From IMG/VR virus record IMGVR_UViG_3300049460_000134, positions 32,001 through 96,000 of that record: DNA of 64,000 bases; one strand, 5' to 3'. Both the position numbers and the translations under genes were made by a program. This DNA comes from a virus. The notes below the pieces were generated by a model that made no database searches, was not told the DNA's origin, and saw nothing but the letters and a program-made list of their open reading frames with translations. Position 1 is the first letter of the stretch; the number at the start of each line of letters is the position of its first letter. Shown here in pieces: positions 2,096 through 32,490 of this stretch.

Positions 2096-3349
2096 ATGAA
2101 CATGACGACTGCTGTCGCCGCCGCCGATGATATGATTGTCTGCAAGATTGATGGCGCTCTCTGCCACTCGATCCGCGTTCACCTCAAGCATAACCACCCT
2201 GAATGGACGATTGACCGCTACAAGGAAGAGTTTCCTGGCGAGCCGCTGTTGTCGGCATTCGGTGAGGCGCAGGCTCGCAAGATCCGCGCACAGAAGCAGG
2301 CTGAAGAGCGCCGCAAGGAGCGCATGGCGCAGTTTCAGCCGTCGCAGCCCTGGGCGTTCGAAGAGCGCTATATGCACGAGGTCTTCGGCATCGACACGCC
2401 GATCGTCGGCTCTGCCGGTCAGCCGATCAAGATCAACTATCTGACGGAGTGCCATCCGGAGGCTGAAATCTACCTTCAGGATATCGATCCGGACTACGTC
2501 TTCAACATCGACCTGCTGAAGAAGGCCAACATCGCCTACGAACTCAACATGCCCTTCTATGCCTGGGGCTTTCACGGCACAGGCAAGACGACACTGCTTG
2601 AGCAGACGGCGGCTCGCACTGGCCGCCCATTCCTGCGCGTTCAGCACACCGGCAACACCGAAGAGGCGCACATCGTCGGCCAATATGTCGTCAAGACCAT
2701 CCCTGTCGAGGAAGAAGAGCTCGGCGCTGACGGCGTGAAGCACAGGGTCATCAAGCAGAAGGCCGTCACGGAGTTTCAGCCTGGTCCGCTCGCCGTCGCA
2801 ATGAAATACGGCATGGTCTACTGCGCCGACGAATACGACTTCGCAATGCCGTCAGTCATCGCGCTCTATCAGCCGGTGCTCGAAGGCAAGGCGCTCGTCA
2901 TCAAGGATGCACCGCCTGAATGGCGTGTGACGCGTCCGCACCCCGACTTCCGCTTCGTCGCGACTGGCAACACCAACGGTTCAGGCGACGAGACTGGTCT
3001 TTATCAAGGCACGATGATGCAGAACGCCGCGAGCTACTCGCGCTTCACCATCACGGAAGAGGTTAAGTATATGCCGAAGGAGCAAGAGGCGCTTGTCCTT
3101 CGCTCGCGCACCGGTCTGACGAAGGCTGACGCGATGAAGTTCGTGGAAGTTGCGACCGCGATCCGTGAGGCGTTCGCAACCGGCCTGATCTCGATGCCCG
3201 TATCGCCGCGCGAAATCATCGGCGCTGCTAAGCTGTCGATCATCTACGGCGACAATCCGAAGCAAGGTCTGCGCCTCGCATACACCAACCGCTGCACGCG
3301 CGTCGATCAAAAGGCGGTCGATGATGTGGCTCAGAGGTATTTCGGCTGA
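2096..3349 (+). CDS. MoxR/CobS-like AAA+ ATPase
   Basis: Walker A GFHGTGKT, Walker B YCADEYD, HPDFRFVATGNT, SPRE. Confidence 0.9.
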   Translation: MNMTTAVAAADDMIVCKIDGALCHSIRVHLKHNHPEWTIDRYKEEFPGEPLLSAFGEAQARKIRAQKQAEERRKERMAQFQPSQPWAFEERYMHEVFGIDTPIVGSAGQPIKINYLTECHPEAEIYLQDIDPDYVFNIDLLKKANIAYELNMPFYAWGFHGTGKTTLLEQTAARTGRPFLRVQHTGNTEEAHIVGQYVVKTIPVEEEELGADGVKHRVIKQKAVTEFQPGPLAVAMKYGMVYCADEYDFAMPSVIALYQPVLEGKALVIKDAPPEWRVTRPHPDFRFVATGNTNGSGDETGLYQGTMMQNAASYSRFTITEEVKYMPKEQEALVLRSRTGLTKADAMKFVEVATAIREAFATGLISMPVSPREIIGAAKLSIIYGDNPKQGLRLAYTNRCTRVDQKAVDDVAQRYFG

Positions 3350-3981
3350 TGCTCGATTACCGCGAAAGCGCACCTCGCATCGCAAGGATCGCGAACGCTG
3401 TTGCATACCAGCTCTCCGGATCTGGTGTGCATTCCATGACCAGGGACGACGTTGAGCAGGAGCTTTGGATCGTCTGGTGCATGGCGCGCGACAAGTATGA
3501 TCCCTCGCTCGGTGTTCCCTTTGAGGCCTTCCTCATCAACGGGATCAAGATGCACATCCGATCGAGCATCAAGCGCAAGGCATTCAAGCGAGCTGCCGAA
3601 GAGTGGGGCAAGAGCCTCGACGCTCCAGTCAGCAAGGATGAAGGCGGCGCGACGGTCGGCGAAACGATCGCGGAAGACTTCAGCTTCATGGATGACATCG
3701 AGGCTGAAGGACAGTTCCAGTTCATCGTCTCGCGTTTGACAGAGCGCGCCGCGACATTCGTTCGTCTGCTGCGCGACCAGCCGCAGATCCTGATCGATGC
3801 ACTGAAAGCTCTCGAAGAGCGCTCCAACTACGCAAAGGAACTTGGCGTCAGCAACATGCTGTTCCGCCAGGTGACGACGTCCATGATTTTCAAGCTGATG
3901 GGATGCGATCGTCCAGAGCGCACGCGCATCCTCGCTGAAGTCCGTCAAGTGACGGAGAAAGAACTGAGGAAGCTCGCATGA
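3349..3981 (+). CDS. Sigma-70 family RNA polymerase sigma factor-like protein
   Basis: Region 2-like DDVEQELWIVWCMARDKYDPSLGVPFEAFL; SLDAPV motif. Confidence 0.7.
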   Translation: MLDYRESAPRIARIANAVAYQLSGSGVHSMTRDDVEQELWIVWCMARDKYDPSLGVPFEAFLINGIKMHIRSSIKRKAFKRAAEEWGKSLDAPVSKDEGGATVGETIAEDFSFMDDIEAEGQFQFIVSRLTERAATFVRLLRDQPQILIDALKALEERSNYAKELGVSNMLFRQVTTSMIFKLMGCDRPERTRILAEVRQVTEKELRKLA

Positions 3982-21784: not shown

Positions 21785-23467
21785 ATGCGACAAGATTATG
21801 CCTGGCTGAACCAGGTGGCTCTAACTACGCTCTCGCGCGGCTATCTGCGCGAGGGCATCGCGCCTGAGAACCTCAAGGAAGAGGCGATCGCGCGTGTCAA
21901 TGCCATCGTAGATCGTGCAGAAGAAATCCTCGGTTTTGAACTGCCGACGCTGCGCCTGGGCGTCAAGCGCGGTTGGGTCTCACCCGCCTCTCCGATCTGG
22001 TCGAACTTCGGCGCTGGGCGCGGTCTGCCGATTAGCTGCAACGGCAGCTTCATGGCCGACGACATGGACTCCATTCTCTTCAAGAATGCCGAGATTGGCA
22101 TGATGACGAAGGAAGGCGCTGGCACTTCTGTCTATATGGGCAAGCTGCGTCCGTTCGGCTCTGCTATCTCTGGCGGTGGACGCTCGGAAGGTCCGACGCA
22201 TTTCGCTCGGCTGCCGCAGGAACAGGTGACTGTCGTCTCGCAGGGCAACACGCGCCGCGGCAATGCAGCCGTCTACCTCGATATCGAGCATGAAGACGCC
22301 GAGCGCTGGCTGGATATGCGTTCGATCTCTGGTGGCGTGCACCATCCGATCCAGCATCTTTCGTTCGGCGTGGTCATCGGCGACGACTGGATGAACGCGA
22401 TGCTCGCCGAAGAAAAGGGCGGTCCTAAGCGCAAGCTGATGGCGAAGATTCGCAACAAGCGGCGCGAGACTGGCTTTCCCTACATTGTCTTCCGCGACAA
22501 CGCCAACAATGCTCGCCCGGAAGTGCTGAAGCGGCTTGGTCTGCTGATCTATGCCTCGAACCTGTGCACTGAGGTCATGCTGCCGTCCGGTCCCGACGAA
22601 AGCTTCGTCTGTGATCTGTCCTCGGTCAATGCGCTCTATTACCACGAGTGGAAGAGCACGCCGTTCGTCCGCGAAATGATCTACATGCTCGACGCGGTGA
22701 TGACGGAATACATCGAGAAGATCCGCGGTGTCCGGCTGCTCGCTGATGCGCTTCGCTTTGCAGAACGCTGGCGCGCTCTTGGTCTCGGTGTTCTCGGCTG
22801 GCATTCGCTGCTGCAATCGCAGATGATCGCCATCGAAAGCGATGAGGCTCGAGCGCTGAATATCGAAATCAGCGAGTATCTCGCCACCGAGTCACACGCC
22901 GCATCCCGCGACCTCGCCGAACGTCTTGGAGAGCCGGAAGGGCTGAAGGGCACTGGCTACCGCAACCTGACGGTTAATGCGATCGCGCCTACCACATCCT
23001 CGTCGATCATCTGCGGCCAAGTTTCGCAGCAACGCGAGCCTTGGACTGCAAATATCTTCGAGAACGACAATGCCAAGGGCGTTTTCACGCAGCGCAACGT
23101 GTTCCTTGAGGAGCTGCTCGAAAGCAAGGGGCGCAACGACCAGCAGACTTGGCTCTCGATCTTGCAGAATGCCGGCTCCGTGCAACATTTGGACTTCCTG
23201 ACGCAGCACGAGCGCAACGTCTTCAAGACCTTTGCCGAGATCGACCAGGCAGAGCTGATCCGTCAGACTGCGGACTGCCAGAAGTATATCGATCAGGGCA
23301 TCAGTCATAACATCATCCTGCCGCCCGAAGCGACGATGAAGGAAGATATCGATCTGATCGTGTTGGCGTGGAGAAGCGGTTTGAAATCGCTCTACTATCG
23401 CAAGGGCTTGAACAAGGCACAGGAACTGGCTCGCCAGAATGCTTCCTGCGTGGCGTGTGAGGCGTAA
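21785..23467 (+). CDS. nrdA: Ribonucleotide reductase class I alpha subunit (short, no apparent ATP cone)
   Basis: PISC, SNLCTE, AIAPTTSSS, KSLYY, C-terminal CVAC. Confidence 0.92.
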   Translation: MRQDYAWLNQVALTTLSRGYLREGIAPENLKEEAIARVNAIVDRAEEILGFELPTLRLGVKRGWVSPASPIWSNFGAGRGLPISCNGSFMADDMDSILFKNAEIGMMTKEGAGTSVYMGKLRPFGSAISGGGRSEGPTHFARLPQEQVTVVSQGNTRRGNAAVYLDIEHEDAERWLDMRSISGGVHHPIQHLSFGVVIGDDWMNAMLAEEKGGPKRKLMAKIRNKRRETGFPYIVFRDNANNARPEVLKRLGLLIYASNLCTEVMLPSGPDESFVCDLSSVNALYYHEWKSTPFVREMIYMLDAVMTEYIEKIRGVRLLADALRFAERWRALGLGVLGWHSLLQSQMIAIESDEARALNIEISEYLATESHAASRDLAERLGEPEGLKGTGYRNLTVNAIAPTTSSSIICGQVSQQREPWTANIFENDNAKGVFTQRNVFLEELLESKGRNDQQTWLSILQNAGSVQHLDFLTQHERNVFKTFAEIDQAELIRQTADCQKYIDQGISHNIILPPEATMKEDIDLIVLAWRSGLKSLYYRKGLNKAQELARQNASCVACEA

Positions 23468-23468
23468 G

Positions 23469-23711
23469 ATGAGTATTCACGTTCTCATCCGATCCAATCC
23501 ACCCTGTCCTTCCTGCCTCAAGACAAAAGCGCTCCTTGAGCGGCGCGGTCTGGCCTTCACGGCAGAAGATCACGAGACGCCGGAGAAGGTTGAGACCTTC
23601 GTCGCTGCCGGCCATCGCACCTTTCCGCGCGTCTTCATTGACGACAAGCTGATAGGTGGCTTCGAAGATCTCGAACGCCATCTTGCTTCGCTGGAAGATG
23701 ACGATTTCTGA
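23469..23711 (+). CDS. Glutaredoxin
   Basis: CPSC, TFPRVFI, IGGF. Confidence 0.88.
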   Translation: MSIHVLIRSNPPCPSCLKTKALLERRGLAFTAEDHETPEKVETFVAAGHRTFPRVFIDDKLIGGFEDLERHLASLEDDDF

Positions 23712-24126: not shown

Positions 24127-25086
24127 ATGTCTGCCACCATTCTTGCATTCAAGCCGCGTTCTAAGCCAGAGCCGGAGTCCGTAAAGCAGCCGGCGCCTAA
24201 CCAGCTCGAGATTTCAAAGTTTGAGTGCGATCACCTCGACCGCGTGATTGATCGCGCCGTCCATGTGCTTGACGTCATCCACTCTGGTCCGGCGCTCATC
24301 AAGCAGTTCCTCGCCGGCCAGCGCACGATCGCCTCCACCGTCAAGCACGGCGGCGTCGAATACGAGCTGCAGATCAGCCTCGTCGAAAAGCATTCCCCTC
24401 GCTTCGCATAATAGGAGATTCCATTGCGAAACTTTCTTTCTCGCCTTTTCCGCCGCAACCAGACGATCGTCACGAACGTCTCGGTCAATCACCAGGTCAA
24501 CGTGATCCGTGATGACGCCGACTATATCGACGCGCTCGAAAACCGGATCGCCGATCTCCTGGTCGCCAACACCGACTACGTGATGCGCCTTCAGGCTCGC
24601 GGCATTCGCGTCAAGGAGCTCGAGACGGAAAACGCCGAGCTGCGCGCACAGATCCCTGTTGCGGCATAACGCACATGGGGCTTTCGGCTAACGGGAAGCC
24701 TATAACGCCCTACCAAGGCTCGTGGGCATGGAAAATGGAGCAGCGCCGCAAGCTCGGCGCGCTTCGCGAGCAAGAAACCACCCTCTTCATCAATGGCAAC
24801 AATCGCGAGGCTGCAGAGCGTCGCGACGAAGCCGCAGATCTCGAAAGGAGCTTACATGGCGGACAGACGCCTAACGACTGAAGACAGGCATACGCCGAAG
24901 TTGAAGCAGATCGCCGGTCTCATCCAGGGACTGACCTTCCGCGAAATGCAGCATATCTCGGAATTGCTGAGGGATGAGCTGCAAGTGAGCGGCTCAATGC
25001 CTGTTACCGATGCGCTGCTAAAAGTTGCCGACAATCTTCTCGGCTTCGACACGCAGACCGGAATTCCCTTTCGTTCCGCTTCCTGA
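24127..25086 (+). CDS. Four small hypothetical ORFs
   Basis: ORFs 24127-24411, 24424-24669, 24675-24881 and about 24856-25086, most with SD sites. Confidence 0.45.
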
Positions 25087-25105
25087 AACAATAAGGACAC
25101 CTCCT

Positions 25106-26101
25106 TTGACCTTTCTCATCAATGACCCTGTGACGAAGATCACCGGCGACTACAGCTTCGACGGCACGGTCGTCGCAGCATTCGACAAGCAGGACGGCAA
25201 GCAACGCTACGTCGTCGAGGACGATCGCGGCGCGCTGCATATCTACAGCGAACAGAACCTCCGGCTGATCGGCAACATGGCTGATCACCAGTATCTGCGT
25301 GTCCTCAAGAAGCTGCTCGACAAGGGCGTCTATCGCGAAGGTCGCAACGGCGGCACTTATGGTCTCTTCGGCGAACAGATGCGCTTCGACCTCTCTCGCG
25401 GCTTCCCGCTGCTGACGACCAAGAAGGTTCACTTCCACTCCATCGTCGTTGAATTGCTCTGGTTCCTCCGCGGCGAGACGAACATCAAGTTTCTGAAGGA
25501 CCATAACGTCTCGATCTGGGATGAATGGGCTGACGAGAAGGGTGATCTTGGTCCGGTCTACGGCGCGCAGTGGCGCACCTGGCCGACGATCGAGCATCAG
25601 TGCGCCGATATCTACTATCCCGGCCACATCGACCAGATCCAGAAGGTGATCGACGGCCTCAAGCGCGATTCATACGGTCGCCGGCACATCGTCTCGGCAT
25701 GGAATCCGGCTGAGATCGATGAAATGGCGCTTCCGCCCTGTCACTGCCTCTTCCAGTTCTTCGTGTCTGACAACAAGCTGAGCTGCCAACTCTACCAGAG
25801 GAGCGCAGATTGGTTTTTGGGGGTCCCATTCAACGTTGCCTCATACGCGCTGCTGACCATGCTGATTGCGCGCGAAACCGGCCTTCAGCTTGGCGAATTC
25901 GTGCATAGCTTCGGCGATCTGCACCTCTACGCCAATCACATCGAGCAGGCCAAGGAGCAGCTCACTCGCGAGCCGCGCAAGTTGCCGAAGGTGCTCATCA
26001 ATCCGGACATCGACAAGCACATCTTCGACCTGGAAGTCGGTGACGTCGCTCTCGTCAACTACGATCCCCATCCAGCGATCAAAGCGCCGGTCTCAGCGTA
26101 A
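25106..26101 (+). CDS. thyA: Thymidylate synthase with N-terminal DfrB-like SH3 domain
   Basis: [30 protein letters not shown]; about 57 extra N-terminal residues in frame after AAGGA SD plus TTG. Confidence 0.93.
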
Positions 26102-26391: not shown

Positions 26392-26859
26392 ATGGGCGGC
26401 ACGCTCATTGAACAGACCAAGGTTATCGTGAGCAAGGTTCACGAGAAGGCATTCATTCCGACATACGGATCTGACGAGGCGGCCGGCGCTGACCTTTACG
26501 CTGTTGTCGATGGTCCGGACGCTATCCCGGTTCCGGTCGGCGAGCGCGTGCTCGTCAAGACCGGCTTGTCGATCGAGCTCCTGCCTGGCTACGAAGCCCA
26601 GGTGCGTCCTCGTTCCGGTCTGGCACTGAAGCAGGGCATCACGGTCCTCAACACGCCTGGCACGATCGACAGCGACTATCGCGGCGAGGTTGGCGTCATC
26701 CTTTATAACGCTGGCAACCGGACGTATTTCGTCAACCACGGCGATCGCATCGCTCAGTTGGTGATTGCGCCTGTCGTGCGCGGTGTCTTCGTTGTCGGCG
26801 AACTCAGCGACAGTAACCGCGGCGAAGGTGGCTTTGGCTCGACTGGAGTTTCCGCCTAA
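26392..26859 (+). CDS. dut: Trimeric dUTPase
   Basis: AGADL, RPRSGLA, GTIDSDYRGE, RGEGGFGSTG. Confidence 0.96.
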   Translation: MGGTLIEQTKVIVSKVHEKAFIPTYGSDEAAGADLYAVVDGPDAIPVPVGERVLVKTGLSIELLPGYEAQVRPRSGLALKQGITVLNTPGTIDSDYRGEVGVILYNAGNRTYFVNHGDRIAQLVIAPVVRGVFVVGELSDSNRGEGGFGSTGVSA

Positions 26860-27479
26860 TGCTCTACGGCATCTGCGGTGCTCATCGCAGTGGAAAAACC
26901 ACACTTGCCAAGCGCGTCGCGGAAGAACTTGGTATCGAGTTCATCGATACCTCGTTCGGCTCCATCAGCAAGGGCAAACGCAATCCGGTCGCTCCCATGA
27001 CTCTCAGGGAGCGGCTCGACATTCAGGTTCACGGCCTGGAACGCCACCTGGAGCTCATCCTTCAGGCAAGCCGGCCGGCAATCGTCGATCGCACGCCGCT
27101 CGACATGTTCGGCTATCTCCTCGCAGAATTTCACATGACCTCCGATCGCCATGCTGATGCGGACGTCCTGGAAGGAGCTGCCTACCTCGCCGAGCAATAC
27201 CTCGAGGCTGTGAAGCTCAACTACGACATGGTCTTCTTCACGGAGATCCTGCCGGTCTACGAGGTCGATACCTCGAAGCCGACGCCGCCAAACAATCGTG
27301 CCTTCCAGCTTCACCTGGACGCGATCATCCGCGGCGGTCTGCATCGGCTCCATGACGAGATCAACCATGCCGTTGTGCCAGCGATACCGCTTGCGGAGCG
27401 CGTGGAACAGGTCTCGGAACTGATCGTGGAGCGGATGAACGAAATCGACGACCAGCGCAAAGCCGTCGGATTCCACTAA
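26859..27479 (+). CDS. P-loop nucleotide kinase-like (AAA_28 type) protein
   Basis: GAHRSGKTT, VDRTPLD. Confidence 0.7.
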   Translation: MLYGICGAHRSGKTTLAKRVAEELGIEFIDTSFGSISKGKRNPVAPMTLRERLDIQVHGLERHLELILQASRPAIVDRTPLDMFGYLLAEFHMTSDRHADADVLEGAAYLAEQYLEAVKLNYDMVFFTEILPVYEVDTSKPTPPNNRAFQLHLDAIIRGGLHRLHDEINHAVVPAIPLAERVEQVSELIVERMNEIDDQRKAVGFH

Positions 27480-27575
27480 GCCACACGAAAAAGCCACGCG
27501 CATCCCAACTGCGCGTGAGCTATTCAGTAATTATTGACTGACAACAAACAAGAACAGACACAAGGAGACAGAAGC

Positions 27576-29912
27576 ATGGAAGTTTCGCAGCTTGCGCAGC
27601 TCGACACACACGCCGTCATCGGCGGTGAAGATCCTGAAGCGTTCGGCATGGCTGATACTCCAGAATTCTATCAGATGCTCTCAGCCAGCATCTATCGCGA
27701 CAAGATCCGCGCAGTCGTGCGCGAGACGATCTGCAATGGCTGGGACGCGCATATCATGGGCGGCTGCACCGACAAGGCAGTGCAAGTTACACTCACGGAC
27801 GAGGAGCTTGTCATCAAGGACTTCGGTCCCGGCATTCCGCATGAGAAGATGCGGCCGATCTATTGCATCTACGGCGTTTCGACGAAGGTGAAGGATGAGA
27901 GCCAGACCGGCGGTTTCGGTCTCGGATCCAAGTCGCCATTCGCCGTCACCGATCACTTCTCCGTCGTCTCGTGCTTTGCAGGCACACGCTCTGTCTATGC
28001 CATCTCTCGCGGTGGCAAAGCTACAAGCGGCAAGCCTGACATGCGCCGCATGGTCGCCGTGCCGACAACCGAAAGCGGCGTCACTGTCACGGTCCCGATC
28101 AAAAAGGAAGAGCGCGAGAGCTTTGCCAAGCACATTCGCGCCGTTGCAAAGCAGGGCGGCATGCTGGTGACGCTGAACGGCGAACTTCTGGAGCGCTTCG
28201 ATTACGAGGAGGCGCGCAAGACTGAGTTCTGCGTCGTCGCGCCTCACTGGATGCACGAAAGCCGCATCTATACGCTCTACGGCACCGTCCTCTATCCGGT
28301 GATGACGACCGACCCTGATATCTCCAAGCTGACACGCGATATCGAAGGCCTGATCGGCTACGGCTCGACGCTGGTTATCGTTGCCCCGCCGAATTCAGTC
28401 GAAGTCACGCCGTCGCGCGAGTCCCTCTCTTTTACGGATGGAACCACCGACACCATCAAGCGGCTGCTCGACAAGGCATGCACGCGCATCAGCAAGGCAA
28501 TTCCGGCAGCTACTAAGCTCGCTGTCGATGCACGCGTTGCAAAGAACGGCCGCCTAGCGCTCGCGAGCAAGATCCACGCGATCAGAGAGGTGCCTGAGAA
28601 GGTTCTCTCCAGTGCGCTCGCGATCGCCGAGCACGCCGTCCGCTCGAATCCTGATAACCATATCCAGTATGATCGACAGCGGCGCCTATGCCTTCAGGCA
28701 GCGCAGCGACTGTTCAAAGATGATCGCCGCACCTTCCGCCGTGCGCTGAAGCGTGGTTACAACGCTGGCGAGGACAGCTTCAAGGCGTCGAGCAAGCCGC
28801 TCATCCGCATTGCCTCGAAGATGGGCATGCTGAAGGATGCGCACCTCTTCAACATCTACGCCTATCGCTACCAGACGATCGGCTCCAAGACCAATCCGCT
28901 GAAGGAGCACGACACCGGGGTCGTTAGGCCTGTCCTTTGCGTGGCGCGCAATCTGCGCGATCTGCGACCGACGATGAGCGGTGCAAGCAGCGGTTTTCCG
29001 CCGGACAAGGATAGCTTCATCGCCGGCCTGGTCATGCGCCAGTGGACTGCGGAGCGCCTGAAGCAGCTTCGCGCGCTCGCCGAGCACTACAAGCTGAAGC
29101 TGGTCATCTTCGATTACGAAGCAGCGAAGAAGCCGAAGAAAGCACCGGTCAAGCGCGAAAAGATCGTCGACAAGTATTTCGCCCTTGGTGATTTCAGGGG
29201 AACGACTTGCGAAACGGCAAACCTCGAAAATCCGAAATACTTCCTGATGAGCTTTGCGCGCGAAGGCATGCGTTCGCCCTTTCAGGATGAAGGCCATCAA
29301 TACCACCACCTTCTTGCGAAGCGCTATCCGGAGACGGCTGTCATTTCGTCCAAGACAGACGCTGAGAAGCTGATGAAGCGCGGCGCAGTCAATCTGACCG
29401 GTGTCATTGCCAAGCGCATTGCGGAGCTCGCTGGGGTCCGTGAGGTCCAATACGCTTACGCGATCCGCGAAGGCCTGATGTGCAACGGCAATTATCACCA
29501 CTACCCATCAGACCTGGCCATTTCGTTCGCCAAGCTCGACATGCGGATTGCAAAGCGCCTGTTCCCCGACAAGGCGACGCCTGGCGCTCTCGCTGAAGAA
29601 GGCTTGCTTCTGAACGACGTGATGAACTCGCTGCGGCTCGATTATCAGGACCGCAACTGCGGCGGCAATGAAGCCAAGCTCAAGATCTGGACGTCTGCGA
29701 GAGAGACCTACAAGGCCATGACCACGTCATATGCCGACCAGAAATTCAGTTACTTGAGCGTCCTGGCAGGCATCAGAGTTACCGGCGGCATCAAACGCAA
29801 GATCGATGATCTCCACGACATCATCGTCTTTTTGCAGGACCGCGAGAGTAAGTCAAAATTGACTGAATCCCTTTTGAACCCAATTGCTAACGCCCAGAAG
29901 GAGGCAGCATGA
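27576..29912 (+). CDS. rIIA: rIIA-like protein (GHKL ATPase N-terminus)
   Basis: RETICNGWDAH, DFGPGI, GGFGLGSKSPF, TPSRESL. Confidence 0.85.
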   Translation: MEVSQLAQLDTHAVIGGEDPEAFGMADTPEFYQMLSASIYRDKIRAVVRETICNGWDAHIMGGCTDKAVQVTLTDEELVIKDFGPGIPHEKMRPIYCIYGVSTKVKDESQTGGFGLGSKSPFAVTDHFSVVSCFAGTRSVYAISRGGKATSGKPDMRRMVAVPTTESGVTVTVPIKKEERESFAKHIRAVAKQGGMLVTLNGELLERFDYEEARKTEFCVVAPHWMHESRIYTLYGTVLYPVMTTDPDISKLTRDIEGLIGYGSTLVIVAPPNSVEVTPSRESLSFTDGTTDTIKRLLDKACTRISKAIPAATKLAVDARVAKNGRLALASKIHAIREVPEKVLSSALAIAEHAVRSNPDNHIQYDRQRRLCLQAAQRLFKDDRRTFRRALKRGYNAGEDSFKASSKPLIRIASKMGMLKDAHLFNIYAYRYQTIGSKTNPLKEHDTGVVRPVLCVARNLRDLRPTMSGASSGFPPDKDSFIAGLVMRQWTAERLKQLRALAEHYKLKLVIFDYEAAKKPKKAPVKREKIVDKYFALGDFRGTTCETANLENPKYFLMSFAREGMRSPFQDEGHQYHHLLAKRYPETAVISSKTDAEKLMKRGAVNLTGVIAKRIAELAGVREVQYAYAIREGLMCNGNYHHYPSDLAISFAKLDMRIAKRLFPDKATPGALAEEGLLLNDVMNSLRLDYQDRNCGGNEAKLKIWTSARETYKAMTTSYADQKFSYLSVLAGIRVTGGIKRKIDDLHDIIVFLQDRESKSKLTESLLNPIANAQKEAA

Positions 29913-31837: not shown

Positions 31838-32490
31838 ACACTGAACGCAAATCCAATTACATGCACACTTCGAACGGCAAGAAATACTGGCCGCTCGATC
31901 CGCGCCCTGAAGAAGTCCACCTCGAGGTCGTGGCGCACCACCTGGCAACGCGTGCTCGCTACAACGGCGCAACGCAGCATCCGGTCTTCAAGTCGCGCAT
32001 CCTTTTCTCGGTGGCTGAACACTCGGTTTTGGTGTCTCGCTTCATCGAGGAAGAGCTTGGTCGCCCTGATCTGGCGCTCGAAGGTCTCATGCACGACGGC
32101 TCCGAAGCGTTCAACGGCGATCTCATCCGGCCGCTGAAGTATGACGACAGCTTCCGTGCGCCATTCCAGCGCGTCGAGGTTCTGAACGAGAAGGCCAATG
32201 CTCTGCGCTTCGGTCTGGTCTATCCCTATCCGGAAGAGATCAAGATCGCCGACGAGGCTGTTACCGCGGCTGAAGTCAATCAGATCATCGTCAAGGCGCC
32301 TGAAGATGACTGGAGCTTCGGCAAGCTGCATGACGACACGCGCGTCGCGCCATACGAGATCGAAATGCTCCTGCCCTACGAGGCCAAGGTGCTCTTCCTC
32401 GATCGCTTCTATGAATTGGCTCGTCGGCGGAAGGTTGAGGGATATGAAAGATATTTCGACGCCTCGCTTGCATCCCAATCTGCTGCGTGA
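31834..32490 (+). CDS. HD-domain 5'-deoxynucleotidase (YfbR-like)
   Basis: RYNG, SVAEHSV, LMHDGSEA, PLK, KIAD. Confidence 0.8.
   Translation: MNTERKSNYMHTSNGKKYWPLDPRPEEVHLEVVAHHLATRARYNGATQHPVFKSRILFSVAEHSVLVSRFIEEELGRPDLALEGLMHDGSEAFNGDLIRPLKYDDSFRAPFQRVEVLNEKANALRFGLVYPYPEEIKIADEAVTAAEVNQIIVKAPEDDWSFGKLHDDTRVAPYEIEMLLPYEAKVLFLDRFYELARRRKVEGYERYFDASLASQSAA

Follow-up and report, generated by a model that had tools for sequence, protein, structure and literature searches.

The window analyzed here is a stretch of 64,000 nucleotides (positions 32,001 to 96,000 of the virus record IMGVR_UViG_3300049460_000134), and the gene in question lies on its plus strand at 25106-26101. This gene probably encodes one bifunctional protein of 331 residues (DfrB-TS), in which a thymidylate synthase (TS; ThyA) is joined to a dihydrofolate reductase (DHFR) domain of the R67 or DfrB type that belongs to cluster II of this superfamily. 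A single open reading frame (ORF) with a conserved start, homology and a fold match to DfrB, and a predicted tetramer geometry make up the observed and computed part of the assignment. The source is a complete phage genome of 115,555 bp with direct terminal repeats. Its nearest public relatives are the Rhizobium phages RHEph10, RHph_N1_10, N1_15 and N2_6, with 74% protein identity over the fusion ORF. A preliminary description of the window had implied that the joining of DfrB to ThyA was novel, which was overstated, as a protein of this kind had already been described and tested for activity (Lemay-St-Denis et al., Mol Biol Evol 2025;42:msaf215; PMC12486381). While the architecture itself was already published, its presence in complete Rhizobium phage genomes, including those of cultured phages, is new, and the domain is left unannotated in the public records.

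The plus-strand frame is open over 25025-26101, has no stop within 25106-26098 and is closed by the stop codon at 26099-26101. An N-terminal domain of 57 residues with five beta-strands (25106-25276) is followed in the same ORF by a complete ThyA domain (residues 58-331; 25277-26098). The preliminary description had placed about 57 residues in frame ahead of the ThyA core, and residues 1-57 are exactly those that it quoted. The start is a TTG codon (25106-25108), a Shine-Dalgarno-like AAGGA lies 8 nt upstream of it (25093-25097), and independent gene callers (JGI/Logan) begin the identical 331-residue protein at this TTG. The ThyA part matched PF00303 with an E value of 5.8e-112 over residues 61-330 (profile positions 1-265 of 266), and the fusion protein scored 412.5 bits against the NCBIfam equivalog NF002497, whose cut-off is 327. 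The ALPPCH motif with Cys212 (codon 25739-25741) and the motifs of the RRxxxSAWN and YQRSxD types (YQRSAD in this protein) are intact, and they were invariant in 19 fused proteins. In ThyA enzymes this cysteine is the catalytic nucleophile, and the latter two motifs bind dUMP. In the AlphaFold2 (AF2) model of the full-length protein (pLDDT 82), the barrel ends at residue 54 and the first helix of ThyA begins at residue 58, therefore the linker comprises only about three residues.

The relationship of the domain to DfrB was analyzed by profiles. A profile of seven sequences was searched against 1.84 billion representatives, and the resulting domain family comprised 2005 clusters (50% identity) at E<=0.001 and 573 clusters at E<=1e-10. 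Most members were 60-230 residues long and shared a highly conserved core, K-V-G-G-D-Y-x-F ... R-Y-V-V-E-D-D-R-G-x-L-H-I-[YF]. A profile of 153 family domains was compared by hhalign with aligned sequences of DfrB1, DfrB4 and two further DfrB-family members from plasmids (of Rhizobium and Pseudomonas), giving a probability of 93.9% and an E value of 1.5e-7 over 54 columns, which span the SH3 core in full. A second run with another subset of the family reached 92.3%, and over the runs the E values ranged from 1.5e-7 to 5.5e-7 and the aligned length from 54 to 60 columns. The real alignment scored 37.7, while 200 shuffles of the columns of the DfrB alignment scored 9.0 +/- 2.1 and never above 17.1. 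Of 49 family members searched singly, nine matched PF06442 (DHFR_2; best E 3.6e-4), more than matched any other Pfam family. The similarity to DfrB is real and is visible only at the level of profiles or structures.

The alignment to R67 made by eye in the preliminary description, with an equivalent of K32 and with LHIY in place of VQIY, was reproduced residue for residue by hhalign. K11 (codon 25136-25138) corresponded to K32, F18 to W38, and the LHIY motif at residues 44-47 (25235-25246) to VQIY 66-69 in the B4 strand, and two residues were deleted in the domain at the position of A61-H62 of DfrB1. K11 did not vary among 49 relatives that are free-standing or among 19 that are fused. In a survey that sorted 386 DfrB homologues into five clusters, the only near-universal residue was a lysine or arginine at position 32, and 18 different B4 motifs were functional (PMC12486381). 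The domain has homology to DfrB1 residues 20-78, a lysine at position 32 and a B4 motif (66-69) of the nonpolar/polar/nonpolar/aromatic kind, which are among the features that mark the catalytic clusters I-II of type B DHFR (PMC12486381).

The predicted structure pointed in the same direction. An AF2 model of the domain, made with 49 relatives as input, was a five-stranded barrel with a pLDDT of 95.6. When it was compared with the PDB by Foldseek, the top seven matches were all R67 DHFR (TM 0.82, root-mean-square deviation 1.8-1.9 Å, 28-29% identity, E about 1e-3), so that both a profile match to DfrB (hhalign probability 92-94%) and a structural one, as looked for in the preliminary description, were obtained. 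The top entry, 2p4t, is the Q67H mutant of R67, and the histidine is common to this mutant and LHIY. For four copies of the domain, a homotetramer similar to that of DfrB1 was predicted, again a check that the preliminary description had proposed. Its ipSAE was 0.79, against 0.01 for the best of three controls, on a scale calibrated with two copies rather than four; in that calibration, 20 of 30 proteins with solved structures as pairs of one chain attained this mark, as did 1 of 23 whose solved structures are single chains. The four-copy runs concurred in at least 96% of contacts, with a partner pLDDT of at least 89. The predicted interfaces were B2-B2 (residues 21-30, 34-38, 44 and 46) and L1 (15-18) against L3 (41-43). 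The tetramer of the DfrB1 type is defined by a B2-B2 interface between monomers and an L1-L3 interface between dimers (PMC12486381).

From these models the following cycle is proposed. The ThyA domain would methylate dUMP to dTMP and release dihydrofolate (DHF). Four N-terminal barrels, contributed by two ThyA dimers, would assemble into a DfrB1-like tetramer with a central tunnel, lined by the B4 strands (LHIY) and with a lysine (K11) at each mouth, as in DfrB1. NADPH and DHF would be held together in the tunnel, hydride would be transferred by proximity, and tetrahydrofolate would be regenerated, so that the thymidylate cycle of the phage could be closed without a FolA-type enzyme, including the FolA of the host. 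[quoted passage not shown]

Catalytic activity and trimethoprim insensitivity are ascribed to the window protein by analogy with the assayed DfrB-TS that carries the same motif. This published protein (BBD027md-00173_03685) came from a database of single-cell genomes, was described as bacterial, belongs to cluster II, has LHIY (Table 1 of that work) and is 31% identical to DfrB1 in a local alignment; it reduced DHF with a kcat of 2.3 per s, had TS activity, conferred trimethoprim resistance in E. coli and formed tetramers and octamers (PMC12486381). The bifunctional DHFR-TS suggested in the preliminary description, convergent with the protozoan type, probably holds for the window gene, in that a DfrB-TS with LHIY was shown to be bifunctional (PMC12486381).

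Several points weigh against a DfrB-type reductase. The fusion protein was unmatched by the Pfam model PF06442 even at E<=10, and a scan of the genome with PF06442 likewise gave no match to it; among the runnable checks that the preliminary description had proposed, this plain search with the DHFR_2 hidden Markov model (HMM) was the only one that did not come out in favour. PF06442 is built on cluster I, and therefore this miss argues against a cluster I DfrB but not against membership of the superfamily. The NCBIfam DfrB models did not match the domain, BLASTP of the domain against the DfrB1 of an IncP plasmid returned nothing at E<=100, and phmmer of the domain against all PDB chains did not retrieve R67, the best match being IFT144 (E 0.033), which was judged to be due to chance. 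With hmmscan against Pfam at E<=10 the domain gave merely weak noise (CSD_RNase_II and DUF7556), and in PHROGs it matched one weak family of unknown function. At the residue level, H62, which acts between dimers in DfrB1, is lost in the deletion of two residues, and W38 is replaced by Phe. The net charge of the domain is about -3, while a positive tunnel potential was used as a predictor of activity (PMC12486381). The tetramer model may show likeness rather than binding, as the method has seen solved R67 tetramers, and its score must be read with the two-copy calibration given above. The activity itself is argued from analogy, and some viral genomes that carry the domain have no ThyA, as described below.

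The main rival explanation is that the domain is a true DfrB homologue that serves as a module for oligomerization or for binding nucleotide or folate and does not act as a reductase. It would join two ThyA dimers or hold ligands, similar to clusters III-V of the DfrB superfamily. The authors of the survey weighed whether DfrB domains may primarily bind or oligomerize, found inactive clusters, and called one cluster II protein with LHIF "more of a binder than a catalyst" (PMC12486381). The negative charge also agrees with such a role, as does the lack of any ThyA-family gene in 5 of the 12 near-complete viral genomes that carry the domain. On the other side, of 123 proteins with a predicted DfrB1-like tetramer, 114 were active and the remaining nine were insoluble or not expressed (PMC12486381), and the same tetramer is predicted for the window domain. 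Moreover, the equivalent of K32 is invariant, the active DfrB-TS carries the same LHIY, and in genomes without FolA the domain is joined to, or encoded beside, the only enzyme that yields DHF. We consider a purely structural or binding role unlikely, although it deserves to be kept in mind.

It is far less probable that a generic barrel of the SH3, Tudor or KOW-like type has come to resemble R67 by convergence or accident. The motif G-D-x-V-x-K...G of the first strands is generally known also from KOW-type barrels, there was no pairwise BLAST match to DfrB1, and Tudor, chromo and PWWP barrels followed closely behind R67 in the Foldseek ranking (E 0.01 versus 0.001). However, the identity in the structural alignments was 28-29% to R67 and 9-23% to these other barrels (9-20% to the Tudor and chromo domains ranked next), the profile-profile score was about 13 standard deviations above the shuffled ones, nine family members matched PF06442 directly, and the predicted quaternary structure has interfaces specific to DfrB.

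The least probable explanation is that translation starts at ATG 25277 and yields a plain ThyA, the upstream 171 bases being an untranslated leader or a decaying remnant. In its favour, the GenBank records of RHph_N1_10, N1_15, N2_6 and RHEph10 have no feature under the domain, the ThyA in the RHph_N1_10 record is annotated from the internal ATG, and ATG initiates translation more strongly than TTG does. The comparison of related phages spoke clearly for the longer protein. In a DNA alignment of the window with four related phages, TTG 25106 was unchanged in all five, and a purine-rich AAGGA, AAGGAG or AGAGAA preceded it at the same distance in the four relatives. The DNA on the 5' side of this Shine-Dalgarno sequence could not be aligned among the five phages, whereas the 3' side aligned codon by codon. 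Within the 171 bases of the domain, each relative differed at 19-24 third codon positions versus 5-10 first and second positions, a bias typical of coding sequence whose protein is kept by purifying selection. The domain was also better conserved among the related Rhizobium phages (79-90% protein identity) than the whole protein (74%), and ATG 25277 had no Shine-Dalgarno-like sequence ahead of it in the sequence read. In addition, the 2005 clusters of relatives at E<=0.001 identify it as a real protein domain.

The fused homologues agree with this. With residues 1-57 as the query and the targets limited to proteins of ThyA length, 18 clusters of fused proteins were found (322-340 aa), all with PF00303 and all called by independent pipelines from a start before the domain. 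The fused proteins all formed one clade at no less than 67% identity; two more distant ones were located on contigs of 135 kb and 67 kb. At the junction with ThyA, where the window protein has Met58 (ATG 25277), the homologues had M, A, D, S, N, K, Y, W, L, Q or R, that is, Met58 was exchanged for ten other residues, and therefore in many of them ThyA can be produced only as a fusion. The extension is thus, as judged from conservation, translated as part of the fusion. Translation from ATG 25277, which the preliminary description had named as an outcome that would undo its proposal, is very unlikely given the conserved start and the unconserved Met58, and the plain-ThyA explanation has hardly any probability left. 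An extra internal start at ATG 25277, used besides the TTG, may exist in this phage. As for other candidates, GTG 25130 was ruled out as the start, since it encodes the conserved Val9 (V30 of DfrB1) in strand 1 and has no Shine-Dalgarno sequence of its own, and a sequencing artefact was ruled out because 18 independent clusters have the same fusion.

The fusion gene lies within a block of genes for nucleotide metabolism, all on the plus strand. Upstream are the genes of the ribonucleotide reductase large subunit (21785-23467; PF02867, E 1.1e-83) and a glutaredoxin (23439-23711; PF00462, E 7.3e-9). Downstream follow a dUTPase gene (26392-26859; PF00692, E 3.5e-29), which would supply dUMP for ThyA, and a gene for a P-loop NTPase, possibly a nucleotide kinase (26859-27479; matches to AAA_28/AAA_33); in RHph_N1_10 the gene at the same place after the dUTPase is annotated as a P-loop NTPase. 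Three small ORFs (94, 81 and 97 aa; 24127-25086, plus strand) without Pfam matches are located between the glutaredoxin and the fusion gene, and RHph_N1_10 has three hypothetical genes at the equivalent place. After the block there is a protein of 792 residues (27534-29912, plus strand) whose only match was a weak N-terminal one to HATPase_c_3, a GHKL-type ATPase (E 2.8e-5, just below the Pfam cut-off). The preliminary description had seen no FolA in the block, and this holds for the whole complete genome, in which FolA-type DHFR (PF00186) gave 0 matches, the fusion protein included. ThyX (PF02511) also gave 0 matches in the whole genome.

The linkage of the domain to thyA extends beyond the fused proteins. 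The survey reported four viral cluster II homologues, all near thyA and in genomes without FolA (PMC12486381). Among 80 IMG/VR loci with the domain, three had it fused to thyA and 25 more had thyA directly downstream on the same strand. The ThyA proteins encoded downstream of free-standing domains shared only about 30% identity with the window ThyA, therefore the domain is linked to more than a single lineage of ThyA. In Pelagibacter phage Kolga, gp36 (2716-3168 of the locus) ends 4 nt before the thyA gene gp35 (3173-3958), whose product is 30% identical to the window ThyA, and this pair may be the "5 bp" case of PMC12486381. The domain forms the C-terminal third of Kolga gp36, a protein of 150 residues of unknown function. 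Some other relatives (149, 300 and 192 aa) contain two or three DfrB-type domains in tandem, similar to engineered tandem R67 constructs, and fewer of these polypeptides might suffice to build the tunnel.

Among 32 viral records of at least 30 kb carrying the domain, none had FolA or ThyX, and 16 had a gene of the ThyA family, including 7 of the 12 near-complete ones. The other five near-complete genomes had no ThyA-family, ThyX or FolA gene. Therefore the domain in these five serves host enzymes or another task, and it does not always serve a phage ThyA. In several records with the domain the ThyA-family matches were weak (E 1e-15 to 1e-22) and covered the profile partially; these proteins could be enzymes similar to dUMP or dCMP hydroxymethylases, which would not produce DHF.

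With similarly narrow peptide patterns, 87 stretches were retrieved from IMG/VR and only three loci from 185,579 species genomes, by scans that are not comparable as censuses, and this contrast hints, at the level of sequence counts, that the cluster II branch is mainly viral. A broader proposal is that cluster II is mainly an auxiliary family of phages that recycles the DHF made by ThyA, that the reductase activity is ancestral and not a promiscuous by-product, and that the published "bacterial" DfrB-TS is a phage or prophage gene of the same clade of the Rhizobium phage type. This proposal builds on the 87 stretches versus three loci, on the approximately one third of viral loci with thyA fused or downstream, on the 0 of 32 records with FolA or ThyX and on the single clade of fused proteins. 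The incomparable scans and the 5 of 12 complete viral genomes that have the domain without ThyA argue against it, and we rate its chance at a little under even.

In the public records MN988505.1 (88676-88846), MN988506, MN988543 and JX483881/NC_034248 there is no feature under the domain. In RHph_N1_10, the record inspected for the start of ThyA, the gene begins at the internal ATG, and the 171-bp domain appears as intergenic sequence. The fusion thus exposes a systematic annotation error, in which ThyA is started at an internal ATG and the reductase domain is missed. Because standard HMM libraries miss cluster II DfrB domains, surveys of viromes and resistomes under-count reductases that are encoded by phages and are probably insensitive to trimethoprim. 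The group of RHEph10 and RHph_N1_10 can be grown and manipulated, so that what a rudimentary enzyme of the SH3 fold does in an actual thymidylate cycle is open to testing in vivo. The bearing on the origin of dfrB resistance genes that the preliminary description had seen is small, as clinical dfrB genes belong to cluster I (VQIY) and the domain of the window falls in cluster II, which is distant from it. Clinical dfrB genes were traced to Burkholderiales (PMC11662351), and the phage fusion leaves this view of their origin unchanged.

Compared by description, the published DfrB-TS is the closest known system. Both proteins have an N-terminal SH3 domain of the DfrB type followed by ThyA, belong to cluster II, carry LHIY, are about 30% identical to DfrB1 in local alignments and have a predicted DfrB1-like tetramer. 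They differ in that the fusion of the window comes from a complete phage genome with relatives in cultured Rhizobium phages, while activity was assayed for the published protein. The viral cluster II homologues next to thyA (such as A0A6J5PTB3 with LHIF) belong to the same domain family and also occur in phages with ThyA and without FolA. However, they are separate small genes, one of them 5 bp from thyA, whereas the window has one polypeptide. Four such members were listed in PMC12486381, compared with the 87 IMG/VR stretches and 2005 clusters found in the present analysis.

R67 DHFR or DfrB1 (PDB 1VIE and 2RK1), a type II DHFR that is carried on plasmids and resists trimethoprim, shares with the window domain the five-stranded SH3-like barrel, the K32 equivalent, the type of B4 motif and, as predicted, a tetramer with the same interfaces. 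The window domain is only 27-30% identical to it, falls below the Pfam DHFR_2 threshold and has LHIY instead of VQIY, F in place of W38, A in place of W45 and no H62, the L3 loop being two residues shorter. It also lacks the disordered N-terminal tail, is fused to ThyA and is carried by a phage and not by an integron.

The DHFR-TS proteins of protozoa, plants and giant viruses resemble the window protein in having an N-terminal DHF reductase and a C-terminal ThyA in one chain, for consecutive steps of the thymidylate cycle. Their reductase is a monomeric FolA-type domain (DHFR_1) of about 160-230 residues, whereas that of the window would be an SH3 barrel of 57 residues that is active only as a tetramer. 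The reductase folds are unlike, and therefore the DfrB-TS and the FolA-type DHFR-TS fusions are convergent.

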